From: a virus | Lineage: Duplodnaviria > Heunggongvirae > Uroviricota > Caudoviricetes | Direction: 5' to 3' (one strand) | IMG/VR virus record: IMGVR_UViG_3300013383_000021 | Location: 1 to 27,766 of that record | Length of the DNA stretch: 27,766 bases | In this document: positions 1-17,464 of the stretch, one piece after another | Numbering within the stretch: position 1 is the stretch's first letter | How the letters are laid out: the number at the start of each line of letters is the position of its first letter | Notes under the pieces: model-generated | Seen by the model: only the letters and a program-made list of their open reading frames with translations | Databases searched by the model: none | Told to the model about the DNA's origin: nothing | Position numbers and translations under genes: made by a program

Positions 1-783
1 CCCGCAGCTAATATTCATATCATCAGCATACCTAGTATACGCGAACCTTCTACCCTTCCCGTCAGGGCTATTCGCCGGGTCCTGCAGGCTACGCAGAAAC
101 TTGCTGAACTCAAAATCAAATGGAATCATAATCAGGTTGGTCAGCATCGGGCTAATCGGCGTTCCCATAGGCAGCCCTCCATCCAGGAAGCAAAGCGACA
201 GAGCTTTTTTAAGTTCCTCTCTCCCGTTCTTGTGTTCCATGATGAGGCAGAACGGGTAAATTACAGACAGCGCGTTCCATACAAACTTCGGGGTAGTGTT
301 AGGAAAGAAACCGCTGATGTCGGTCTTTAAATACCACTTGCTCTTATTCCACTGGTGGACTTTAGCAGCATCTACACTGCTTCTATTCTTAACATAAGCG
401 TACGCAGCGGCGTGGCTGCTCGCATAAAACTCAGATTCTAACAGCAGCTTCAGTTCTCGCAGACAGTTCATCAGTTCATCGTCCGGCGCGTTAATTTCTC
501 TCATACCGCCGCTCTTTTTCGGGATAAAGAACCTGTGGTAATGCGTGTGGAGATCGCTCTCAAGTAGCCCTTGATACTTCCTGTTGAATGCTTTCAGCAG
601 TTCGATCTTCTTCTCCGTGTCGAACCCTGCCAGAATTCTCTTAGGCAGTCGTTCATATGTAATCGTCTTAGTGTACACTGTCCTCGACTCTCGTACGTGC
701 TTATCCTGCAGCAGTGCGAGCATAACATCTTCCAGAGAAATCTGCTTGTAATTCTCTGTGACTTTAGCTGTTACATAAATCAT
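1..783 (-). CDS. Retron-type reverse transcriptase, N-terminal 261 codons, runs off the window edge
   Basis: Hand translation from ATG at 783 (SD AAGGAG) is open to position 1. Motifs: IPKKSGGMREINAP, AYAYVKNRSSVDAAKVH (retron region X-like), YLKTDISGFFPN, LPMGTPISPMLTNL, YTRYADDMNIS. Absent from the ORF track because no stop lies in the window. Confidence 0.93.
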   Translation of the reverse strand, partial: MIYVTAKVTENYKQISLEDVMLALLQDKHVRESRTVYTKTITYERLPKRILAGFDTEKKIELLKAFNRKYQGLLESDLHTHYHRFFIPKKSGGMREINAPDDELMNCLRELKLLLESEFYASSHAAAYAYVKNRSSVDAAKVHQWNKSKWYLKTDISGFFPNTTPKFVWNALSVIYPFCLIMEHKNGREELKKALSLCFLDGGLPMGTPISPMLTNLIMIPFDFEFSKFLRSLQDPANSPDGKGRRFAYTRYADDMNISCG

Positions 784-801
784 ATTGTTCTCCTTGTTCT
801 T

Positions 802-1124
802 TATCTGAAACTATATATGGCTTGGCTTGAGCCTGTAGGCATCTATCCTGACGATAGGTTTATTGCTACCTATAGGCGCAGACGCGACGCTGTGCTAACC
901 CACATTGGTGGATAGAGCATAGGTGCCGTGATTCTCAATAACCGAGTGGGTGTCCTCTCGTCTGCATGCTGGAGGAGGGTATCGACGAGCTTGAGCCTAT
1001 GAATACCGGCAGCGGTAACTAAATCTGAGTCGCCTGTCGTCGTCCCCGCCTCTCCGGACAATGTATTACTCTTCCGTTCCGGCAAGAGTTTCTATTTTTT
1101 TCAAATAGAAAGTGCTTTCAGATA
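802..1124 (-). ncRNA. Retron ncRNA (msr-msd) 1, directly upstream of the RT
   Basis: a1/a2 inverted repeat UAUCUGAAA (1124-1116) / UUUCAGAUA (810-802). Unpaired G at 1115 faces a G at 811. It is followed by two msr-like hairpins and a long branched region. Confidence 0.8.
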
Positions 1125-1160
1125 GTTAAATCAGGTTTGGTTGTTAGTTAACCACTAGCG

Positions 1161-1835
1161 TTAGTATGCTTCCATAGTAAAATCAAAGGCGTCGATCAGA
1201 ACCATCTTCTTGATCGGACGCCCGTTCACAAAATTCATAAAATTTGCCACCGCGCAAGAGCAAATCATCCGCACAGAAGGTGCGATACTAAGTTCCAGAT
1301 TACACGCAGATCGAGGAGTCTCAGCCAGGGCTTCCTCCTGGGTAAACTGCATGGAGTTAATCAGGTTTCTAACCATCTCGTTAGACCCCCAATCCGCAGC
1401 GAAGTGCTGCGCGTCTGTCAGCCGAAGTCTGGTATCAAACACAGCTTTGATGTATGGATTTCTAACGTTGTCTTCGCAAATTTTTCTACGGAGGTCAATG
1501 TTGTCTACCATAAGGAAGACGTAGCCGGACAGACGCTGGTTGGTGTATCCTTCCTGAACCACATCGATGCCGTTTGCGTCTGGGTTGATACTCAACATCA
1601 AATCTTTTACAGCCTCAGCTTTATTTCTACCGATATCGCTATCCTTGAACATCTGATTCGCGATATTGTGCGGCTCAACTTTATCGAAATCATACAGAGT
1701 AACCTTCTCAAGCCCAGCTCTCGCCAACAACTCAGCTACCGTGGAGCCGGACGCGCCACATCCAATGATATGTACCCTCTCCTTGACCTTCGTAGGGTTA
1801 AAAAACTCAATACTCTTCGATAAATTCATCTTCAT
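1161..1835 (-). CDS. ThiF/E1-like adenylyltransferase (ubiquitin-activating enzyme-like)
   Basis: IIGCGASGS nucleotide-binding loop, DFDKVEPHNIANQ, VDNIDLR, and a C-terminal Cys (SACN). Confidence 0.92.
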   Translation of the reverse strand: MKMNLSKSIEFFNPTKVKERVHIIGCGASGSTVAELLARAGLEKVTLYDFDKVEPHNIANQMFKDSDIGRNKAEAVKDLMLSINPDANGIDVVQEGYTNQRLSGYVFLMVDNIDLRRKICEDNVRNPYIKAVFDTRLRLTDAQHFAADWGSNEMVRNLINSMQFTQEEALAETPRSACNLELSIAPSVRMICSCAVANFMNFVNGRPIKKMVLIDAFDFTMEAY

Positions 1836-2178
1836 ACCTCCTTATAACATCAAACAGCTTAGAAACAGATTTTTCATCAACAGAACAAGCATCTTTAACC
1901 AGCTCGACCATCCACGGACGCCATAATAAATTTCCAGTTTCTTTTGCTAAGAACCTCGAAAGATTGTCGTCCCAACTATGAGTATGCCAACTCGCGTTTT
2001 CTACCGTTAATATTCTCCCACAATACCTTTCATGGTCACTACTAAAACAACCCGCACCACCAGATCCAAGAAGGAATATACTTCCTGGGTTAATCTGTTC
2101 AGCAATACGCGCATCTGGTCTTAAGAGCAGCTCGCTCCACTCTTTAACTCTAAATTTCTGACCAACCACGATATTCAA
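1807..2178 (-). CDS. Hypothetical small protein with a VDE..L-type C-terminal motif
   Basis: 123-aa ORF, SD GAGGTG, TTG start, tightly packed in the operon. Confidence 0.7.
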   Translation of the reverse strand: MNIVVGQKFRVKEWSELLLRPDARIAEQINPGSIFLLGSGGAGCFSSDHERYCGRILTVENASWHTHSWDDNLSRFLAKETGNLLWRPWMVELVKDACSVDEKSVSKLFDVIRRYEDEFIEEY

Positions 2179-2191
2179 AATACCACCTCTA

Positions 2192-2524
2192 TCACAACAA
2201 CAAACAGTTCATAAAAATCTCCTCATCAACGGATCTCTTTAATCGCAATACGCTTTTATAAAAGAGCATCTCCTTCTTGCCAACCCTCACTATATACCAG
2301 CCACCAAATTCACCCTTAATGATCTCGCCGCCGTCTCTTATGAACTCGCTAAAGTAAGGATCGTCCCCCGCGTACATCACATTGACGGCGCATATAAATC
2401 TTTCGCCGGTGATAATGTCTACGCTCCGCGACACAGCTCCATTCGGCAATGCCGCCCGTAAGTTATCATCAAATTCATCCCACGTTTTTGGAATAAACTC
2501 AACCTGCTGCCCAGGTCTAAACAT
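2192..2524 (-). CDS. Hypothetical small protein ending VDEEIFMNCLLL
   Basis: 110-aa ORF with SD GAGGTG. Confidence 0.8.
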   Translation of the reverse strand: MFRPGQQVEFIPKTWDEFDDNLRAALPNGAVSRSVDIITGERFICAVNVMYAGDDPYFSEFIRDGGEIIKGEFGGWYIVRVGKKEMLFYKSVLRLKRSVDEEIFMNCLLL

Positions 2525-2533
2525 TATATCACC

Positions 2534-2878
2534 TCACAACAATAAGCAATTCACAAGCGTCTCTTCGTCAACACGCTTCTCTCCTAATGGGAGCGGTGCC
2601 ACTTTATCCAATCCACTCTCCAGGCACTCATCTCTTACTTCGCCAGAGTCAATATGCCAAATCCAATAGTCATCCGGTTCCAGATAAATCGTAGCGCCGT
2701 ACTTATCCGGGGCGTTAAAATTGTCACCTTCAACCATTTCGAGTCCATCACTGACGCACTCCTGGAATACTAAATGAAACCTACGTTTCACGTGCTCTAC
2801 CGCACTCTCCAAATTCCCATAAACACCGGACAAATCAACACCCTGGTCTGTCTCGGTTATCACACAATACACTTTCAT
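2534..2878 (-). CDS. Hypothetical small protein ending VDEETLVNCLLL
   Basis: 114-aa ORF with SD AAGGAG immediately after ncRNA 3. Confidence 0.8.
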   Translation of the reverse strand: MKVYCVITETDQGVDLSGVYGNLESAVEHVKRRFHLVFQECVSDGLEMVEGDNFNAPDKYGATIYLEPDDYWIWHIDSGEVRDECLESGLDKVAPLPLGEKRVDEETLVNCLLL

Positions 2879-2892
2879 ACCACACTCTCCTT

Positions 2893-3092
2893 ACTTATGC
2901 GCCTCTGAACAGCTGAGGCGGAGCGAGGTGATACCATATTGGTAATATCGAGACTCCTACCAGCTGTTTAAGTTCAAAAGTTTTCCCGCTCCCAGCGCTG
3001 AAAACTTTTGAAGCTGCACCAATCATTTTGTTATTTCCTCGTTCCGATAAAAGTGATATGCGGCTCAACATATCTGTACAGGCACATATAGT
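2893..3092 (-). ncRNA. Retron-like ncRNA 3 (orphan msr-msd)
   Basis: a1 UAUGUGCCU (3088-3080) pairs with a2 AGGCGCAUA (2904-2896). G3079 faces G2905. Hairpin GAUAUG/CAUAUC, then ACUUUU-A-UCG-GAA-CGA-GGAAAU, and a perfect 13-bp TTCAAAAGTTTTC/GAAAACTTTTGAA hairpin. Confidence 0.65.
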
Positions 3093-3093
3093 T

Positions 3094-3789
3094 TTACTTA
3101 TTTAAAATCTTACCACCATACCGGTCAGGATGCTCATCAATATTTTCGTCTACGTCTTTCATGAACTCTTCAAGCTCAACTGCCACGTTCATGATCCACT
3201 CAACCCCATCCTGTAAATCACGCACATCCACGCCCTCGAAACATTCAATATTGTCGAAAATCACTCTACACAAATCATATACAACAAAATCGTACTTCCC
3301 CGTCGTGATTTTCACATTGTTGTCTTCATACAGGACGCCTTCTCTGACATCGTAAACCTGCGCAGAAATGCAGCCTTTCTTGTTAAAAATCTGGAAGACG
3401 TAAAAATCATCAATGTCTGTCAATAAGTCCTCTCTATACTTCATATCGGTAGAAGAAGGAGCGACGCCCATATTTACGTGCGAGTGGCCATACAGCCGAA
3501 CCTTATTAAATGTCTCCGCGTCAAGAGAGTTTTGCCAATTCACATAGTCTTCGTCATCAGGCTCAGTGCTTGTCGATGTAACCTTCTGTGGAAAGACCAA
3601 GATGTCTTCCACAATAAACTCAGCCGGTTTTTCCGACCGTCTTACAACTCCATGCCACCCAACCTCCAAGTTCCTATTCATAATAAGTAAGCACGTTTTC
3701 ATCCATGCCTTTTTACTGTATGTGATTTCGCACGGACTAGTCGCAGTCAACAAATCCGTTGCGTTAGTAGCTTTAATCATCATTCTCAC
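3094..3789 (-). CDS. JAB/MPN-domain metallopeptidase (deubiquitinase-like)
   Basis: E(VGWHG) and H-S-H-x7-S-x2-D (HSHVNMGVAPSSTD) JAMM motif. Confidence 0.9.
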   Translation of the reverse strand: MRMMIKATNATDLLTATSPCEITYSKKAWMKTCLLIMNRNLEVGWHGVVRRSEKPAEFIVEDILVFPQKVTSTSTEPDDEDYVNWQNSLDAETFNKVRLYGHSHVNMGVAPSSTDMKYREDLLTDIDDFYVFQIFNKKGCISAQVYDVREGVLYEDNNVKITTGKYDFVVYDLCRVIFDNIECFEGVDVRDLQDGVEWIMNVAVELEEFMKDVDENIDEHPDRYGGKILNK

Positions 3790-5188
3790 TCTCCTTTATC
3801 CATTTGATTGCTTCAATATAATTAACCATCTGTCCGTCCGGTAATTCCAACACTACGGCGTCTTCTCTGAACAACTCTTCGAGGAACGATCTCAGTACGA
3901 CAGTATCACTAAGATTCAGATTTCCATTTTCAGCACACGTTGTATCTACCGCATAAACGTAATCACATTTATCGCAAGATTTCTCAAGCGCCTGTTGCCA
4001 GCTTCCCATGCAACCATATTTATCGAGATGTGTGTTAGGGAGATAGCTGCTGTATTCGCGGCTATACCCATATACCTTGATGGGCAACACCGCTCCTCCG
4101 AAAGAGAGTCTCCACGCGGAGCACATCCTTACCTTGATATTGGAGTCAACGAAAATCCCTGTCATTAAACTCTCAACATCACTTTCTGTTAGCCCTACGT
4201 ACGAAGACCGCGCATAAAAAACTGATGTCCGATTATTGATGTACTCTCTTGCAATTTCCGGATCAAACAGCGTCATATAGCCGGTTACGACGTACAGAAT
4301 ATTCCCATCTTTGTCGCTGCTCTCAATAGACACGTTTTTGTTCGACAGGAAATAGTCCATCAGCTCGTTCTTGCTCTCAACATTACTGTTGTCGATTGCT
4401 GCCACCAACAAAGACTGTTCTTCGTACTCTCTGTACAAATTTTTCAAACCGGACATCATCTTGCTAATTGAATTTCTCGTACGCTCCATTTGTTCTGCAT
4501 ATTTTTCTCGCTGGATATTTCTCAGTCTAGCTTCATAGCCATAAAGATGATATCTTTTTTTAGCTGAATCCACATCCACAACAGCAGTGACCATATCATT
4601 CATCGCTTTGCAGACCGCGCTTCTACAGGAATCTTCTTTGGACAGAATCTTAATAAATTCTGACTCCGCTTCTGTTCTATCTTTGATATACCACGGGCAG
4701 AACATATTGAAGAGGCACGCCAAGTAGTGCCATGAACTATAGCTGTCCACATTGGTGAGGACAACCGTGCTCTTCTTCTTATTATTCCTAAAGATTCTCA
4801 GCATAATGTTGAGCTGTTCTTTCATCAGGCCAAGCTCTCTTGCCGTCTGCTCTTCCCAGTCGCTTGCGATCTTCATGTTGCCAACTAAAGATTCGGCGAC
4901 TTTAACTTTGTCCCATACGCAAAATGTAATCGTGTTATCTTGAGAAGTTACTTCCGAAAAACGCTCCTTGTCTTCCGCCCACGTACTCCAATCAGCACAG
5001 TTAGAATCTACCACTCTGACCGTAACACGCGCGTCCGCCGAAACTCTTGACCTTAAAAACAGCCGAGCCATCGCAAGCGCGAAGTCATCGCCTTTGAACG
5101 TCCCGTCACCAACAATATTAGAGAACTCAGACTCCAGCTCTGGACTCAACACTAAAACTTCGCTGCGTTTCAAACAACTTGAAAACAT
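3773..5188 (-). CDS. Large coiled-coil protein with a putative C-terminal prokaryotic E2-like domain
   Basis: Start moved to ATG 5188 (SD AAAGGAG). LPNTHLDKYGCMG resembles the prok-E2 His...Cys motif. It lies between the Ubl and JAB genes. Confidence 0.6.
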   Translation of the reverse strand: MFSSCLKRSEVLVLSPELESEFSNIVGDGTFKGDDFALAMARLFLRSRVSADARVTVRVVDSNCADWSTWAEDKERFSEVTSQDNTITFCVWDKVKVAESLVGNMKIASDWEEQTARELGLMKEQLNIMLRIFRNNKKKSTVVLTNVDSYSSWHYLACLFNMFCPWYIKDRTEAESEFIKILSKEDSCRSAVCKAMNDMVTAVVDVDSAKKRYHLYGYEARLRNIQREKYAEQMERTRNSISKMMSGLKNLYREYEEQSLLVAAIDNSNVESKNELMDYFLSNKNVSIESSDKDGNILYVVTGYMTLFDPEIAREYINNRTSVFYARSSYVGLTESDVESLMTGIFVDSNIKVRMCSAWRLSFGGAVLPIKVYGYSREYSSYLPNTHLDKYGCMGSWQQALEKSCDKCDYVYAVDTTCAENGNLNLSDTVVLRSFLEELFREDAVVLELPDGQMVNYIEAIKWIKESENDD

Positions 5189-5269
5189 ATTTTTTACTCC
5201 TTTCTTTGTGAACTCTTGGCAAGTCACCTAGTGTGACCAGGCTACCTCCCAACAGCTCGCTACATTATG

Positions 5270-5298
5270 TACGAGGCCGGGCATTGCCCGGCCTCGTA
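5270..5298. repeat. Perfect 13-14 bp hairpin between the Ubl and E2-like genes
   Basis: TACGAGGCCGGGCA-T-TGCCCGGCCTCGTA; no U-tract on the transcribed strand. Confidence 0.8.
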
Positions 5299-5316
5299 GT
5301 CGTGTGCTAATTTGAA

Positions 5317-5556
5317 TTAGATTGCGTTACCCTGCGCCTTAACAATAGCACTCAGGGTACATACTCCAACAGCACCAAGTTCTGCAAAGGTGCAATCCAT
5401 ATCATCAGGCATCAGAATCGTGCCGGACAGAGAGTTGACGCTGCGGCTGTAGTCAACCCCAATCTTTTCAAACAGAGAACGAGGGGTTTCCGCGTTTTCG
5501 TTTACGGCTTGACCATCAAAACGACGGGTAGTGCTACGAACATTAACAATAATCAT
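5317..5556 (-). CDS. Prokaryotic ubiquitin-like (beta-grasp) protein
   Basis: 79 aa with a beta-beta-alpha-beta pattern and C-terminus IVKAQGNAI. SD AGAAAGGAAG. Context is E1/E2/JAB genes. Confidence 0.7.
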   Translation of the reverse strand: MIIVNVRSTTRRFDGQAVNENAETPRSLFEKIGVDYSRSVNSLSGTILMPDDMDCTFAELGAVGVCTLSAIVKAQGNAI

Positions 5557-5601
5557 ATTATACTTCCTTTCTGTTAGTGCGTTTATGTTTATCGGTTACT
5601 T

Positions 5602-5991
5602 TCAGCCTGCCACTACGATCTTGGAACCGACACGTGCCAGCATAACGTCGATTTCTTCCAGTGCTTCGCGCATCTGAGCTTCAATCTTTTCGACCTTCTC
5701 GATAACAGACGCATATCTCTCAGCGACAACCTCGCGTACGGGGCGGTCAGCTTCGGTAATGAGACTCACAGTTACGACTGCGCGGCCAGAACCGTCGCAG
5801 GATTCAGCCTCATAGATGATGCCGGTCGGTGCCACCGCACCTCTTTCACCGACGAGAGTGTAGAACAGCGCATCGCCGTCTTCGTCCAGTAGCTGCACGG
5901 ACTTAGGGCGATACAGAGTTGCGCGTTCAATTTCCTCGATACTGAAAGCGCTCTTAAAAGTTACTGCGTTACCACATACAATAATATCCAT
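5602..5991 (-). CDS. Hypothetical protein, C-terminal coiled coil (129 aa)
   Basis: Start re-assigned to ATG 5991 (SD AAAGGAG). The longer start in the track lies inside ncRNA 2. Confidence 0.8.
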   Translation of the reverse strand: MDIIVCGNAVTFKSAFSIEEIERATLYRPKSVQLLDEDGDALFYTLVGERGAVAPTGIIYEAESCDGSGRAVVTVSLITEADRPVREVVAERYASVIEKVEKIEAQMREALEEIDVMLARVGSKIVVAG

Positions 5992-6019
5992 ACTATGTAC
6001 TCCTTTTTTCGTGTTATTG

Positions 6020-6361
6020 AACTCAGTTATAACCAACGTTACATTCCTAAACATGGATGCTCGCCCACTCTGGATACCCATAAGAGCCTGGGTAATGTAA
6101 GCCTGCGAGCGGAACGCTTACGTTACTCGACTGCAAGGCTCAGCTTATCCGCTTTGCTTCGACCCTTTTGTTAGGGTGTCCCGAGGTATCTGTGCTGCGG
6201 ATGTGGTTGGCGAACCTGCACCGTAATCGCGAGCAGGCAGGAGCAATTGCCTGGCAGCGGCGGCCTCTCTTTCAGCAATATGTTACTATCCCGTTCCGGC
6301 AATAGTTTCTCTCTTTTTTTTTGAGAAAGTGCGAATGCTTTGTCGGTTATTAACTGGAGTT
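6020..6361 (-). ncRNA. Retron-like ncRNA 2 (orphan msr-msd)
   Basis: About 24-bp interrupted a1/a2 stem (6361-6333 with 6046-6020). G6332 faces G6047. Followed by CACU, a UUCUC/GAGAA hairpin and ACUAUU-G-CCG-GAA-CGG-GAUAGU, which is near-identical to ncRNA 1 with compensatory changes. Confidence 0.75.
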
Positions 6362-6390
6362 ACTGACGTTTGTTCAAATTGCGATTCTAT

Positions 6391-7257
6391 TTATGCGTTA
6401 TCAATTCTCTGCTGGCCGTTATTCCAAACGACCAAGCAATCAGGATCGGGAACACCTTTGGTTTCCTTACCATCCAGCCATCTAGACAGTACGTAAGAGG
6501 TTGTCAAGAACACACGGTGACGGTAATGCTTACACCGGCCATCAATAGTGGAATCCTTAATCCAATCTCTCAGTCGGACGATCTGTCTGTCCAAACTAGA
6601 CTCAGCGTAACCGGTCTGGAGGACATTCCAGAAGTATTCAAGCTTAACATCGCTTGCCCCGGCTTCTTTTGCCAGATACAGAGCAGCCGTAACCGGAGCA
6701 GTACCAAGCTTACGCTGCTTCACCTTCAAGAGACTATTGACCCAGGAGAATTCAGTAATATGCTTCGAAATCATGTCCGCTCTCTTAGCTTCGTTCTCCA
6801 AGTGCCTCGCACTAAACTCGTTCAGAACCATACAGATTGCAACCGAGCGCTTGTAAGAAGAAATCTTGCCTCTGTTTCCACCCTCGGCCATCCACAATGC
6901 GTCGGCTTCGCTTCTCGCTCTGCCTCGGTCAATGTACGGACTACGCTCCATGTTGAACAGGAAGAACAGCTTCACGGTCTTGCCGCAACGTTTCACAGCT
7001 TCCAACCGGTGATGGCCGTCAATAAGAACACCGGCCTTATCAAACATGATAAAGCCGGTAGGGGTGTCTTCTTCCCACGTACCATTCATCATGTGGGACT
7101 TGTACTTATTCACGGTGTCCTTACTGATAGGGCGGTTGCCGCCAGACAAAGCCAGCAAACCCGTTGCCATCTCCGGAGACACGTAAGCGTATGCCAACTG
7201 TCCTCCGTTCCGTTCTTCGAGCAACAAATTGCTCAACAATTCTTCATAAGCTGTCAT
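6391..7257 (-). CDS. ParB/Srx-like (DGxHR) N-terminal domain protein
   Basis: NRPIS..V..Y...M..G.W and IMFDKAGVLIDGHHRLEAV motifs; SD AGGAGG. Confidence 0.75.
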   Translation of the reverse strand: MTAYEELLSNLLLEERNGGQLAYAYVSPEMATGLLALSGGNRPISKDTVNKYKSHMMNGTWEEDTPTGFIMFDKAGVLIDGHHRLEAVKRCGKTVKLFFLFNMERSPYIDRGRARSEADALWMAEGGNRGKISSYKRSVAICMVLNEFSARHLENEAKRADMISKHITEFSWVNSLLKVKQRKLGTAPVTAALYLAKEAGASDVKLEYFWNVLQTGYAESSLDRQIVRLRDWIKDSTIDGRCKHYRHRVFLTTSYVLSRWLDGKETKGVPDPDCLVVWNNGQQRIDNA

Positions 7258-7285: not shown

Positions 7286-7362
7286 TGGTGGTTCCTGCCC
7301 GGCTCGAACGGGCGACCATCCAGTTATGAGCTGGACGCGCTAACCAACTGCGCTAAGGAACC
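7286..7362 (-). tRNA. tRNA with CAT anticodon (elongator Met or Ile2)
   Basis: Cloverleaf; TCCAG-CTCATAA-CTGGA; TTCGAGC T-loop; encoded CCA. Confidence 0.93.
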
Positions 7363-7369
7363 AGGTACG

Positions 7370-7402
7370 TTTAAGGCCGCTGATAAATTCAGCGGCCTTA
7401 AA
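7370..7402 (-). terminator. Hairpin, probable terminator or processing stem
   Basis: TTTAAGGCCGCTGA-TAAAT-TCAGCGGCCTTAAA. Confidence 0.55.
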
Positions 7403-7438
7403 CTGTTAATGAAAGCAAGTGTCCGTATAAAACGAACG

Positions 7439-7512
7439 TGGCAGCGCCGGATAGTGTCGAACTATCGTTCACGGAGTCAAAGTCCGTTGCATTACCGTTA
7501 TGCTACGGCGCT
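7439..7512 (-). tRNA. tRNA-Gln(TTG)
   Basis: ACGGA-CTTTGAC-TCCGT; acceptor AGCGCCG/CGGCGCT; CCA. Confidence 0.92.
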
Positions 7513-7618
7513 ATTTAAATCAAGCAGAGCAGAGTTTAAAGCCATTCCAGGCTATGTAAAGAAAGGAGGTGGTTTATCAACAATAACAGGTAGGAGAATC
7601 ATTTTCTGTTGCTTGACA

Positions 7619-7693
7619 TGGAGCAGGCGGCGGGTACTGACCCCGTGTTCCCGGTTTGGAAGACCGGTGTTCTAACCATTGAACTACACCTGC
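7619..7693 (-). tRNA. tRNA-Gly(TCC)
   Basis: CCGGT-CTTCCAA-ACCGG; CCA. Confidence 0.9.
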
Positions 7694-7694
7694 G

Positions 7695-7769
7695 TGGACT
7701 GAGTGGTCAGATTCGAACTGACAACCTCCTGACCCCAAATCAGGAGCGCTTCCATTGCGCTACACCCAG
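7695..7769 (-). tRNA. tRNA-Pro(TGG)
   Basis: CCTGA-TTTGGGG-TCAGG; TTCGAAT T-loop; CCA. Confidence 0.92.
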
Positions 7770-7772
7770 AGA

Positions 7773-7846
7773 TGGAGCTACCACCCAGAATCGAACTGGG
7801 ACTTATTGCTTACGAAACAACCGTTCAACCATTAAACTATAGTAGC
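7773..7846 (-). tRNA. tRNA-Thr(CGT)
   Basis: GTTGT-TTCGTAA-GCAAT; acceptor GCTACTA/TGGTAGC; CCA. Confidence 0.85.
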
Positions 7847-7847
7847 A

Positions 7848-7923
7848 TGGAGGCCGATGTGAGACTTGAACTCAACGTCTGCGGGTTACAAAGCCGCAAT
7901 TTTACCAGTTAAACTAATCGGCC
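7848..7923 (-). tRNA. tRNA-Thr(TGT)
   Basis: GCGGC-TTTGTAA-CCCGC; CCA. Confidence 0.88.
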
Positions 7924-8072
7924 ACGCCACCCTGCAAGGCAGGGTAACTATGTAAGGGAGATCAAAAAGGGGAACTCCTGTCTCTTCCAGGATGCCAACA
8001 CACTACTACGATTTACCAGAGGCAAACCGCCACTTTTCAGGTGTCATAGTCCGCAAACTATGGGCTTTTCTT

Positions 8073-8149
8073 TGGTGAGCTACCTCGGATTTGAACCGAG
8101 ACTTTACGCATTCTAAGTGCGGCCTCTCTGCCTATTGGAGTAGTAGCTC
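8073..8149 (-). tRNA. tRNA-Leu(TAG) with a short variable loop
   Basis: CGCA-CTTAGAA-TGCG; TTCAAAT T-loop; A73-CCA. Confidence 0.85.
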
Positions 8150-8154
8150 GTTTG

Positions 8155-8496
8155 AACTTGCTGCAACCCAGCCTGGTGGTTGACCCGTGGGCGTTGATAA
8201 CTGACCCGAACCATTGACCCAGGATTTTGTAAAACTTTAACCATTGAACGTTGACTCTTAAATTTTAATCTTCTGAAGATCTTTGAGCCGTGAATTTTGA
8301 AATTTGAGCTTTGAAGTTTGAGCTTTATAGCAGACTTTCTTCTATTAAGAACTTGGATTAACAGTCCAATCTTTTTACAAGCACAAAATTTCAAATTTTG
8401 CTTTGTAGTTGGCACATATTTGATCATTTTTTACATCGAACCAAGTGCCATCAGCACGATGGGTTACCGTTTTAGGTTTTCGGATTGCAGCAAGTT
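8155..8496 (-). ncRNA. Candidate ncRNA closed by a 15-bp terminal stem and containing 7-nt periodic repeats
   Basis: AACUUGCUGCAAUCC (8496-8482) pairs with GGGUUGCAGCAAGUU (8169-8155). TCAA/TTAA-like units recur every 7 nt at 8237-8265 and 8283-8325. Confidence 0.6.
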
Positions 8497-8503
8497 GATT
8501 ATT

Positions 8504-9157
8504 TTAATATTCTACAGTGATTTCAGTGGTTGCGTTGGCAATAGACAGCTGCGAATCCACATCCGTAGTAAAGGCGTCGATCCAATCGCTCAAAACCTTG
8601 ATTTCATCACCGATGCCAAGCGGATCGACCAGCTCATAGGTGTTATTTGCGATGTAATCCTCTCTCAGCTTCTTAACCACCTCAGAATCCTTAGATGTCT
8701 TAGCTTCTTTGGGCTGCGACTGAAGGAAATTCATGATGTACTGCTCGGCTTTCGCCTCAATCCACTCGCCTTCATGTTTTGCGACCTCGGCACGAGCTTT
8801 TTCGTACTGCCGAACCATTATATCCAGCAAATCCTTCTTAGCTGTGAGTCCATGGTTCTTCATCTCGATAGCTTCGGCCACAGTGTAGGTCTCACCACCA
8901 ATTACCACCTTGATTTCGGCATTGGAGAGCACAACCGCTCTCTTAATAGCAGTCCGACGAGCAATCAAATCCGTAACGGACTGATAATCAGACTTCATCT
9001 CCTTTTTGAGGGTTTCAACCAGTACACCACCGACCTTTTTGTCGCTCACTTTCTTGCTGGTGACGAAAACCTTACCAGAAGTGGCGTTGAAAATTCTAGC
9101 GTCCAAAACCTTCAGCTCCGCGAGAGCTTTGTGGATAGTCATAGTCTCTTTGTTCAT
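8504..9157 (-). CDS. Uncharacterised alpha-helical/coiled-coil protein embedded in the tRNA operon
   Basis: 217-aa ORF, SD GAGG, strongly helical pattern (IHKALAELKVLDARI). Confidence 0.85.
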   Translation of the reverse strand: MNKETMTIHKALAELKVLDARIFNATSGKVFVTSKKVSDKKVGGVLVETLKKEMKSDYQSVTDLIARRTAIKRAVVLSNAEIKVVIGGETYTVAEAIEMKNHGLTAKKDLLDIMVRQYEKARAEVAKHEGEWIEAKAEQYIMNFLQSQPKEAKTSKDSEVVKKLREDYIANNTYELVDPLGIGDEIKVLSDWIDAFTTDVDSQLSIANATTEITVEY

Positions 9158-9207
9158 GTCAATTCCTCACTTTCTTACTTATAGCTTATAGAATTAGATT
9201 TTTATCG

Positions 9208-9298
9208 TGGTCTCCCTGGGTGAATTCGAATCACCATATACCTTATGAGGGCCTTCCAATTATAAGTTGGAAGCTATAACCAATTTAGCTACAGGGAG
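9208..9298 (-). tRNA. Atypical tRNA: TAT anticodon (Ile) with an extra arm carrying CTCATAA
   Basis: Acceptor CTCCCTG/CAGGGAG-A-CCA; TCCAA-CTTATAA-TTGGA; about 19-nt extra region; GGTGA-TTCGAAT-TCACC. Confidence 0.7.
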
Positions 9299-9486
9299 AT
9301 ATTTGTTCGGCAAACACAACCGCTCTATCAATCAGTCGGCCTAACCAAAGGATAGAGCTGAGTTGTGTCGCCCAACCTGCCTGAGAGCTTTCTTGCCTAG
9401 CCTGTACTTAACCGGGTGTCTGCAATCAATGTTTAGGTTGCTGGTTTTGACCCTCGCCCCAGAACCAGTTAACTAGAGCGATTGAG

Positions 9487-9572
9487 AGCTGCTAGGCGGA
9501 ATTGCACCGCCTTGAAGTCATAAGTGAGGCACGGAAGGAGTGTGCCACACCTCTTCACCCGCTTTGAGCAGC
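9487..9572 (-). ncRNA. tRNA-like element A (acceptor + T-arm, no D-arm)
   Basis: GCTGCT/AGCAGC acceptor-like stem; GGCGG-TGCAATT-CCGCC; no encoded CCA. Confidence 0.45.
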
Positions 9573-9574
9573 GT

Positions 9575-9637
9575 GTACGGCAACCAGAATTGCACTGGAA
9601 TAACTGCGGTCAGACAGCCAACCTCTTTTACGCCATA
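9575..9637 (-). ncRNA. tRNA-like element B (D-armless, about 63 nt)
   Basis: TATGGCG/TGCCGTA stem; CCAG-TGCAATT-CTGG; central GGCTG/CAGTT hairpin. Confidence 0.45.
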
Positions 9638-9702
9638 AGGTTATATACATGGAGCAATATATGGTTTATTTCGCACTATACATCGCGCAGTTTAATTGCG
9701 CG

Positions 9703-9778
9703 TGGCACCAGCACTAAGACTCGAACTTAGAACTACGATTTTGGAGACCGTTGTTTTTCCATTTAACACTATACTGGT
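9703..9778 (-). tRNA. tRNA-Trp(CCA)
   Basis: ACGGT-CTCCAAA-ATCGT; G73-CCA. Confidence 0.9.
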
Positions 9779-17298: not shown

Positions 17299-17464
17299 AC
17301 AGCGTCCTACCTTTCCGCTATCCTGGCAGTAGCTTGCTAGGATAGCTTTTTTGCAGGCATAGACAGAATCCATCTATGTTATTCCTGCGACCTCGCAGGC
17401 CAGGACAATCCCAGCCTACGAACGCTCCCGGCCTAACGCCTGTTTATAGTCGCCGGGACGACTT

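Follow-up and report, generated by a model that had tools for sequence, protein, structure and literature searches.

A retron-type reverse transcriptase and several retron-like RNAs share a conserved phage cassette with candidate ubiquitin-like conjugation genes

Genes and predicted proteins of the cassette

The DNA studied here, called the window throughout, is the stretch of 27,766 nucleotides that forms the first 27.8 kb of the IMG/VR phage record IMGVR_UViG_3300013383_000021 (106,272 bp; completeness rating 99%). Its subject is a region in which a reverse transcriptase (RT) and three non-coding RNAs (ncRNAs) resembling those of retrons are found together with candidate genes for a ubiquitin-like protein (Ubl), an E2-like protein, a JAB-type peptidase and a ThiF-family E1, the last four being referred to below as the Ub genes. 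Every gene of this region is encoded on the minus strand, in the order ParB-like protein, ncRNA2, 129-aa protein, 79-aa protein, E2-like protein, JAB, ncRNA3, three small open reading frames (ORFs), E1, ncRNA1 and RT. An earlier reading of the DNA letters, the original prediction, had described this region as a ubiquitin-like conjugation set fused with a retron, and all of its elements were found at or near the positions it gave, on this strand and in this order. The two ends of the record share a 19-nt overlap (window 1-19 and G000 106254-106272), which indicates that the record is a circularly permuted assembly and that the RT gene is whole, split merely by the choice of the start point. Its N-terminal 261 codons lie at 1-783 (minus strand; PF00078, E=6.7e-12), and the remaining C-terminal 133 codons at the other end of the permuted record (G000 105869-106270).

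The best NCBIfam match of the full-length RT was retron_St85_RT (E=1.7e-46, 158.8 bits compared to a curated cut-off of 235 bits, 270 of 289 profile positions), with group II RT (3.7e-18) and Drt2 (5e-6) far behind. In PADLOC, the 25 top matches were all retron RT models, of several types, down to 7.5e-40. As the protein matches retron profiles best but does not reach the curated cut-off of any retron model, these data indicate that, by profile, it is an RT of the retron type that lies outside the types described so far. Retron RTs carry the signature motifs NAxxH and VTG. Both are absent from the consensus of the RT alignment, where their places are taken by DAVKRH (STVDAVKRHQ) and NLG (RNWNLGVMLN); in the window RT, the sequence at the first of these places is SVDAAKVHQ.

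The E1 gene (1161-1835, minus strand) encodes a ThiF-family protein of 224 aa, in a family of 222-224 aa, and the ThiF profile PF00899 (E=1.7e-24) spans its residues 19-221. Its best matches in NCBIfam were 6A-MBL cap2_3 (1.2e-20) and ThiF (2.3e-20), and MoeB is also among the best matches. The GCGxxG loop and Cys178, within PxSAC, are invariant; a separate mobile catalytic-Cys domain was not found in this protein, which has only the conserved Cys178.

The 471-aa protein encoded at 3773-5188 (minus strand; its start is the ATG used by all homologues) matched nothing in Pfam, NCBIfam or PADLOC, and a sequence-based comparison of the E2-like and JAB family profiles with solved structures found nothing. 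Its assignment comes from a motif, from AlphaFold2 (AF2) models and from structural comparison with VIA-align. Among 29 sequences, with identity down to about 20%, the motif PNxH(x5)CxG is conserved, P384, H387 and C393 being invariant and N385 and G395 nearly so. An alpha/beta domain at the N-terminus of the protein is followed by long helices and, at the C-terminus, by a UBC/RWD-like domain. AF2 modelled the whole protein with a pLDDT of 87.7 and the C-terminal domain with a pLDDT of 87.9 and a pTM of 0.82, and the model of this domain has the order of secondary structure elements of a UBC fold plus a three-helix insert. RWD, UBC and UEV domains dominate its list of structural matches in VIA-align: Ubc9 was aligned with a Z of 6.6 (root-mean-square deviation 3.1 Å, 92 residues), kinetochore and GCN2 RWD domains with Z values of 5.5-7.3, and 8tyz_C, the E2 chain of a bacterial E1-E2-Ubl complex, with a Z of 5.6. 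Given these moderate Z values together with the PNxH..C motif, we accept that the protein carries an E2-like catalytic domain with a predicted UBC-like fold.

The candidate JAB/JAMM-motif metalloprotease (228 aa; 3094-3780, minus strand) was recognized by its JAMM motif, in which E39, H99-S-H101 and S109-S110-x-D112 are invariant among eight members with identity down to 27%. The JAB proteins of the distant clades L004, L005, L006 and L012 bear a C-terminal tail of 70-100 residues, of low complexity, acidic and rich in aromatic residues, which is absent from the JAB of the window.

The 79-aa product of the gene at 5317-5556 (minus strand) has no Pfam or other profile match. We read it as a candidate Ubl from its conserved C-terminal tail and from a weak language-model likeness (0.84-0.86) to ubiquitin, YukD and TmoB clusters, which is taken as a lead only; the pattern of its sequence is compatible with a beta-grasp. 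When the C-termini of 26 clades were compared, the family consensus was KADNA plus 0-2 residues: in most clades the protein ends exactly at KADNA, and the window's lineage, represented here by the tail KAQGNAI, adds 1-2 residues. A conserved tail with few lineage-specific extra residues is the pattern expected of a tail that is conjugated and, where needed, trimmed by a peptidase. Between the Ubl and E2-like genes lies a perfect 14-bp GC-rich palindrome (5270-5298, no strand), a position that is taken by a tRNA gene in L005 and L006 and by an ncRNA copy in L004. Some clades carry tRNA genes inside the cassette; those of L005 and L006 are the ones between the Ubl and E2-like genes.

A ThiF protein, a beta-grasp protein and a JAB could also form a set for sulfur-carrier or small-molecule biosynthesis, of the ThiF/ThiS, MoeB/MoaD or CysO/Mec+ type, rather than for protein conjugation. 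Such a role would suit the minimal E1, the presence of ThiF and MoeB among its best matches and a Ubl without a Gly-Gly end; however, the large E2-like protein, with its UBC-like fold and its invariant PNxH..C, is always present, the cassette is without sulfurtransferase or biosynthetic partner genes, and its context is a phage genome. We consider this explanation very improbable.

The protein of 129 aa encoded at 5602-5991 (minus strand) is a core member of the cassette and belongs to a family without assignment. Its gene always adjoins the Ubl gene and is present in nearly all loci. The family comprises 1,475 representative clusters, in all of which the protein stands alone with a length of about 130 aa, and clustering at 50% identity leaves more than 1,000 sequence clusters; the ESM Atlas gave no lead for it. 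In several clades (L098, L099, L101, L108, L124 and others) the Ubl gene stands ahead of the 129-aa gene, adjacency being kept in either order. The 129-aa protein was also considered as a second modifier, with respect to its C-terminal Gly in the window's lineage, and this was rejected, as the terminal Gly is not conserved across clades. A complex prediction for the RT with the N-terminal part of the E2-like protein and the 129-aa protein had a score of 0.00, which gives no answer either way.

The original prediction had named a retron-type RT, a ThiF-family E1, an E2-like protein, a JAB and a Ubl. The first two are supported by profiles (NCBIfam and PADLOC for the RT, PF00899 for the E1), and the third by a UBC/RWD-like fold at moderate Z with the invariant PNxH..C, so that the lack of a UBC fold, which the prediction had put forward as evidence against itself, is not what the models gave. 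The JAB call agrees with the invariant JAMM motif, the Pfam matches being sub-threshold, and the conserved C-terminal tail supports the fifth protein as a predicted Ubl candidate.

Retron-like RNAs that accompany one reverse transcriptase

The three ncRNAs have the anatomy of retron msr-msd RNAs. Their general layout is an a1 repeat, a conserved G, hairpin 1, hairpin 2, a UAACA.UUG-like tail, a long and fast-changing msd, and a2. In ncRNA1 (about 802-1124, minus strand), recognized by its fold, its a1/a2 repeats and an architecture common to several clades, a1 at 1116-1124 (UAUCUGAAA) pairs over 9 bp with a2 at 802-810 (UUUCAGAUA); the conserved G is at 1115, the hairpin-2 loop CCGGAACGG at 1074-1082, and the U-poor msd is about 230 nt long. 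Its fold has a z of -2.6, and in relatives its ends are nearly invariant and its middle is unalignable. ncRNA3 (about 2893-3092, minus strand; orthologues in L009-L012) has the loop motif at 3039-3047 (UCGGAACGA) and two long msd hairpins; a1 (3080-3092) and a2 (2893-2904) pair over 12-13 bp and close the structure, the fold having a z of -3.0. In both RNAs a2 sits immediately before the ribosome-binding site of the next gene.

The third RNA, ncRNA2, is held by a 309-nt intergenic gap (6082-6390, minus strand), in which its msr module occupies about 6253-6340 and its hairpin-2 loop, again CCGGAACGG, 6291-6299. The fold of the whole region is insignificant (z=0.27). The original prediction had listed ncRNA2, which has the shared msr module; its a1/a2 pairing is weak in the window phage, though it is strong in relatives and reaches a length of about 28 bp in L007. 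The msd parts of ncRNA1 and ncRNA2 are long, U-poor and weakly structured.

A two-hairpin 5' module is common to all three ncRNAs, and ncRNA1 (1032-1115) and ncRNA2 (6249-6332) share a repeat of 84 nt. The loop motif YCGGAACGR has three matches in the window against 0.63 expected, a number reached in none of 100 shuffles, and in the context of an msr module it occurs nowhere else in the 106-kb genome. Hairpin 2 shows strong covariation: in a cross-clade alignment of 18 sequences, 97.5% of the cells were paired compared to 72.8% in shuffles (0/500 as high) and 29-42% in slid controls, and six of the nine pairs have changes on both sides. Hairpin 1 forms in every copy, from unrelated sequences. 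Perfect a1/a2 repeats of 8-12 nt, which differ in sequence and have a G immediately following a1, were found in about 15 of 23 clade representatives, where they bound retron-shaped ncRNAs of about 255-360 nt. Across distant clades, therefore, arm and hairpin sequences differ and pairing is maintained. At the other end of the scale, among phages with 80-95% identity between their RTs, alignment is limited to the msr module and the a2 end, the middle of the msd having been replaced.

Database searches of these RNAs were negative: Rfam gave no match to a retron or any other family for the ncRNAs, and ncRNA1 had no match among GenBank phages. The best matches of the msd parts to the phage's own genome, searched for complementarity, were 13-14 nt, no better than those of shuffled sequence. 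Two other interpretations of the RNA regions were rejected. All three ncRNAs have ORFs of 43-71 codons that begin within the msr module, but these candidate msd-encoded peptides have a frame that is not kept open in relatives, and long open frames in the msd result from its U-poor composition. The 84-nt repeat was considered as the template and variable repeats of a diversity-generating retroelement; it corresponds to the msr module common to two ncRNAs.

One RT is thus accompanied by several dispersed ncRNAs, three in the window phage and up to about five in relatives. The window phage is a case in which all three are interleaved with the Ub genes, as the original prediction had described, but this arrangement is confined to its lineage; most other clades have their extra copies on the downstream side of the RT, at distances of up to 10 kb.

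Linkage of the RT and the Ub genes across phages and bacteria

To what extent the RT and the Ub genes occur together was established from both sides of the cassette. An RT-anchored scan of IMG/VR with the RT alignment yielded 311 contigs, and 81 loci were examined. Four were left out as untestable, the RT being about 3 kb or less from the contig end; in all 77 viral loci with enough upstream sequence, E1, JAB and E2-like genes were found just upstream of the RT, and almost all of these loci also had the Ubl and 129-aa genes. In the reverse scan, anchored on E1 (389 contigs; 80 loci examined), an RT was present within 3.5 kb downstream of E1 in 79/79 testable viral loci, the contig of the 80th ending 330 nt after E1. 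In bacterial genomes the RT occurs almost only in Clostridia metagenome-assembled genomes (MAGs) from animal and termite guts, and E1, JAB and E2-like genes accompany it in 50 of the 52 testable loci. Co-occurrence is therefore at least 96% whichever gene anchors the search, and these data indicate that the RT and the Ub genes do not assort independently. Independent assortment of the RT and ncRNAs from the Ub genes was the observation that, according to the original prediction, would speak against a joint system; it was not seen.

Both exceptions are in bacterial genomes. In a Defluviitaleaceae MAG (L177, 9965-11588), a cassette-less RT of this clade has an integrase as its neighbour where an integrated element ends, and an RNase H gene (PF00075, E=9e-45) comes directly after the RT; in the other genome, the cassette-less RT lies between MazG and an integrase. 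No E1 of the cassette type was found elsewhere in either genome. In the RT tree, both are nested among cassette-bearing RTs with support of 0.88-0.95, and the absence of the cassette from these two loci looks like secondary loss.

We also compared the surroundings of the cassette in 24 representative loci. The cassette is common to each locus and all 23 others, whereas the flanking genes of a locus are shared with only 0-13 of them. These observations bear on a rival explanation, that two independent systems lie side by side only through a gene order inherited by the whole phage group. It would agree with the origin of all loci from gut or rumen Clostridia-type phages and prophages, with the dispersal, in most lineages, of the extra ncRNA copies to places away from the Ub genes, and with the two RTs without Ub genes. 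Yet adjacency survives down to 21-30% identity of the E2-like protein and 40% identity of the RT while both flanks have been replaced, the co-occurrence given above holds with any anchor gene, and the nested position of the two exceptions points to secondary loss. We regard two independent systems as improbable.

What is general across the clades is the adjacency of E1, ncRNA and RT and the set of five proteins. The RT, E1, JAB, E2-like, Ubl and 129-aa protein, all listed in the original prediction, form the core, but the small proteins that it also listed occur only in the window's phage lineage, as does the ParB-like neighbour. The three small ORFs are all on the minus strand. The first (123 aa; 1807-2178) is without a family match and has homologues only in this lineage; the second (110 aa; 2192-2524; C-terminus VDEEIFMNCLLL) and the third (114 aa; 2534-2878; C-terminus VDEETLVNCLLL) are neighbouring paralogues, also confined to this lineage, with the common C-terminal tail VDEExxxNCLLL and a CaaX-box-like ending. 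The ParB-like protein (288 aa; 6391-7257, minus strand) matches phrog_5931 with E=1.2e-30 and the ParB-like phrog_1033 with E=1e-3. On the same strand and directly upstream of the cassette, an array of nine tRNA genes (Met, Gln, Gly, Pro, Thr x2, Leu, Ile, Trp) extends over 7286-9778. Further along the window, 17386-17463 (minus strand) matches the Pistol ribozyme with 64.4 bits, compared to a gathering score of 34.5, the full model being covered. Scans for promoters and terminators gave no signal above chance.

Possible function and comparison with known systems

The components named above are all found in the sequence, with conserved catalytic motifs and covarying RNA structure, and the RT is co-inherited with the Ub genes while the flanks change. 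Taken together, these results argue for one cassette, which very probably works as a single functional unit. We lean towards the interpretation that it is a conserved phage cassette in which a retron is joined to a complete ubiquitin-like conjugation set, the Ubl machinery being in the place of the usual toxic effector. On the conjugation side, E1 would adenylate the C-terminus of the Ubl, from which, in the window's lineage, JAB would first trim 1-2 residues; the Ubl would then be passed to Cys393 of the E2-like protein and on to target lysines, and JAB could also reverse the conjugation. On the retron side, the RT would copy each ncRNA into multicopy single-stranded DNA (msDNA), priming at the G after a1, and the RT-msDNA complex would act as the sensing or regulating arm, as in known retrons, with the Ubl machinery in the role that a toxic effector usually has.

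How the two sides would be coupled can be stated with less assurance. The msDNA may gate or target conjugation; that the RT-msDNA controls conjugation, rather than the reverse, we hold at slightly below an even chance, and an arrangement in which the Ubl machinery would regulate the RT is a serious alternative. The arena is most likely a conflict of the phage, or of the lysogen, with other phages or with host defences. A more elaborate proposal, conceivable but doubtful, is that of a new type of retron with a ubiquitin-like conjugation machine for its effector arm and a single RT that makes several msDNAs from fast-evolving templates, each being a separate sensor or specificity element, which together decide when, or onto what, the Ubl is conjugated. 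If true, it would amount to a nucleic-acid-programmed protein-tagging system in virus-virus or virus-host conflict.

Several observations weigh against the joining of a retron to a conjugation set. The fold matches of the E2-like protein are moderate only (Z 5-7), and Foldseek searches with both of its models against the PDB, AFDB clusters and Swiss-Prot returned no E2 match. For JAB, the motif is accompanied by sub-threshold matches to the Pfam family Prok-JAB in two of eight members (best E 0.046), and the tail of the Ubl candidate ends in Ala, not Gly. The extra ncRNA copies of other lineages lie outside the Ub genes, which means that the position of the RNA is untied to them. All loci possibly belong to one broad group of Clostridia phages, in which case the linkage could partly reflect inheritance, not function. 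Finally, in close relatives the cassette is part of a co-directional block with the anti-restriction gene ArdA and DpnD/PcfM-type genes, and ArdA in this block fits counter-defence as well as defence.

The last observation is the starting point of a further explanation, in which the cassette is a counter-defence or host-takeover module that serves the phage in its own infection. The Ubl would be attached to host proteins, for instance defence proteins, the msDNAs would serve as cofactors or as decoys, and the RT may be under the control of the Ubl machinery, in the way that Cap2 and Cap3 regulate the CD-NTase (cGAS/DncV-like nucleotidyltransferase) in the type II cyclic oligonucleotide-based anti-phage signalling system (CBASS). 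Besides the genes of this block, the maintenance of the cassette across very many phages, which resembles a core function rather than a variable moron, and the long, U-poor, fast-turnover msd parts, which suit an arms race, would be in keeping with such a role. However, the retrons and the Bil, Bub and CBASS Ubl systems that have been characterised in the literature searched are all defence systems, the sequence identifies no host target, and the complementarity of the msd parts to the phage's own genome is not above chance, an external target not having been found. We think this explanation possible but rather unlikely, and retain as the preferred one a retron joined to a conjugation set.

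No account of a Ubl system paired with a retron or an RT emerged from a search of the literature, which was incomplete in its coverage. To our knowledge, the classification of retrons follows their effector, and a protein-conjugation machine is the partner in none of the types described; the cassette would be a new retron type. The bacterial ubiquitin-like systems that we know of have so far been studied as host defences, in contrast to the full ubiquitin-like conjugation set found here in phage genomes. A natural retron serving several template RNAs would be of practical interest for multiplexed DNA production in cells. The cassette is also abundant, with hundreds of IMG/VR contigs and many Clostridia MAGs from animal guts, so that what it does matters for a large part of the biology of gut phages. 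Retron-like RTs in viruses are recorded in a survey of viral RTs, the available part of which leaves their partners unnamed (PMC13681634).

Among known systems, PRTRC (the ParB-related, ThiF-related cassette of plasmids and integrative and conjugative elements) resembles the present cassette in that a mobile element carries a ThiF-type E1 accompanied by a JAB and an E2-like protein, and the ParB-like gene directly upstream of the cassette in the window's phage lineage adds to the likeness. However, this ParB-like neighbour is lineage-specific, the E1 scores 34 bits against the TIGR03736 cut-off of 144.75 and is thus outside the PRTRC model, and none of the JAB, E2-like, Ubl, 129-aa and ParB-like proteins matches any NCBIfam model, the PRTRC models TIGR03734-03742 included, at E<=0.01. 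Type II CBASS, with its Cap2 E1-E2 fusion and its Cap3 JAB, likewise joins ubiquitin-like enzymes and a JAB to a nucleotide-polymerising enzyme, and the PADLOC models of CBASS E1-E2 match the ATP-binding part of the cassette E1, over residues 17-98 only. In the cassette, however, the polymerase is an RT with RNA templates and no CD-NTase is present, E1 and E2 are separate proteins, the Ubl is free-standing, and there is no cyclic-nucleotide effector.

Closer in composition are BilABCD and Bub, the bacterial ubiquitination-like anti-phage operons (10.1101/2023.09.04.556158; 10.1101/2023.09.26.559546), and the available parts of these two papers do not mention an RT. The same four roles (Ubl, E2, JAB-type peptidase and E1) are represented in the cassette, its E2-like domain aligns with the E2 of the bacterial complex 8tyz_C, as described above, and some of its Ubl precursors have extra C-terminal residues that a JAB could trim. 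The cassette differs in that its JAB, E2-like protein and Ubl are without a profile match above threshold in Pfam, NCBIfam and PADLOC, its minimal E1 lacks a separate CYS domain, its E2-like protein bears an N-terminal extension of 270 residues and its Ubl ends in KADNA, not Gly. It also adds the 129-aa protein, the RT and the ncRNAs, and is encoded by phages.

For retrons, Mestre et al. 2020 reportedly distinguished 13 types, a retron being an RT with an msr-msd ncRNA and an effector. The cassette shares with them an RT that scores best on retron RT profiles (the St85 family; II-A, I-A and III-A in PADLOC), an ncRNA just upstream of the RT with a1/a2 inverted repeats, a G after a1 and msr hairpins, and accessory genes that are adjacent and co-inherited. 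It departs from them in its RT, which is below the cut-off everywhere and has DAVKRH and NLG in place of NAxxH and VTG, in the service of several dispersed ncRNAs by this single RT, and in msd parts of about 100-240 nt that are mostly U-poor, weakly structured and replaced between close relatives. Finally, whereas the usual retron effector is a toxin, the partner in this phage-borne cassette is a predicted five-protein ubiquitin-like conjugation set.

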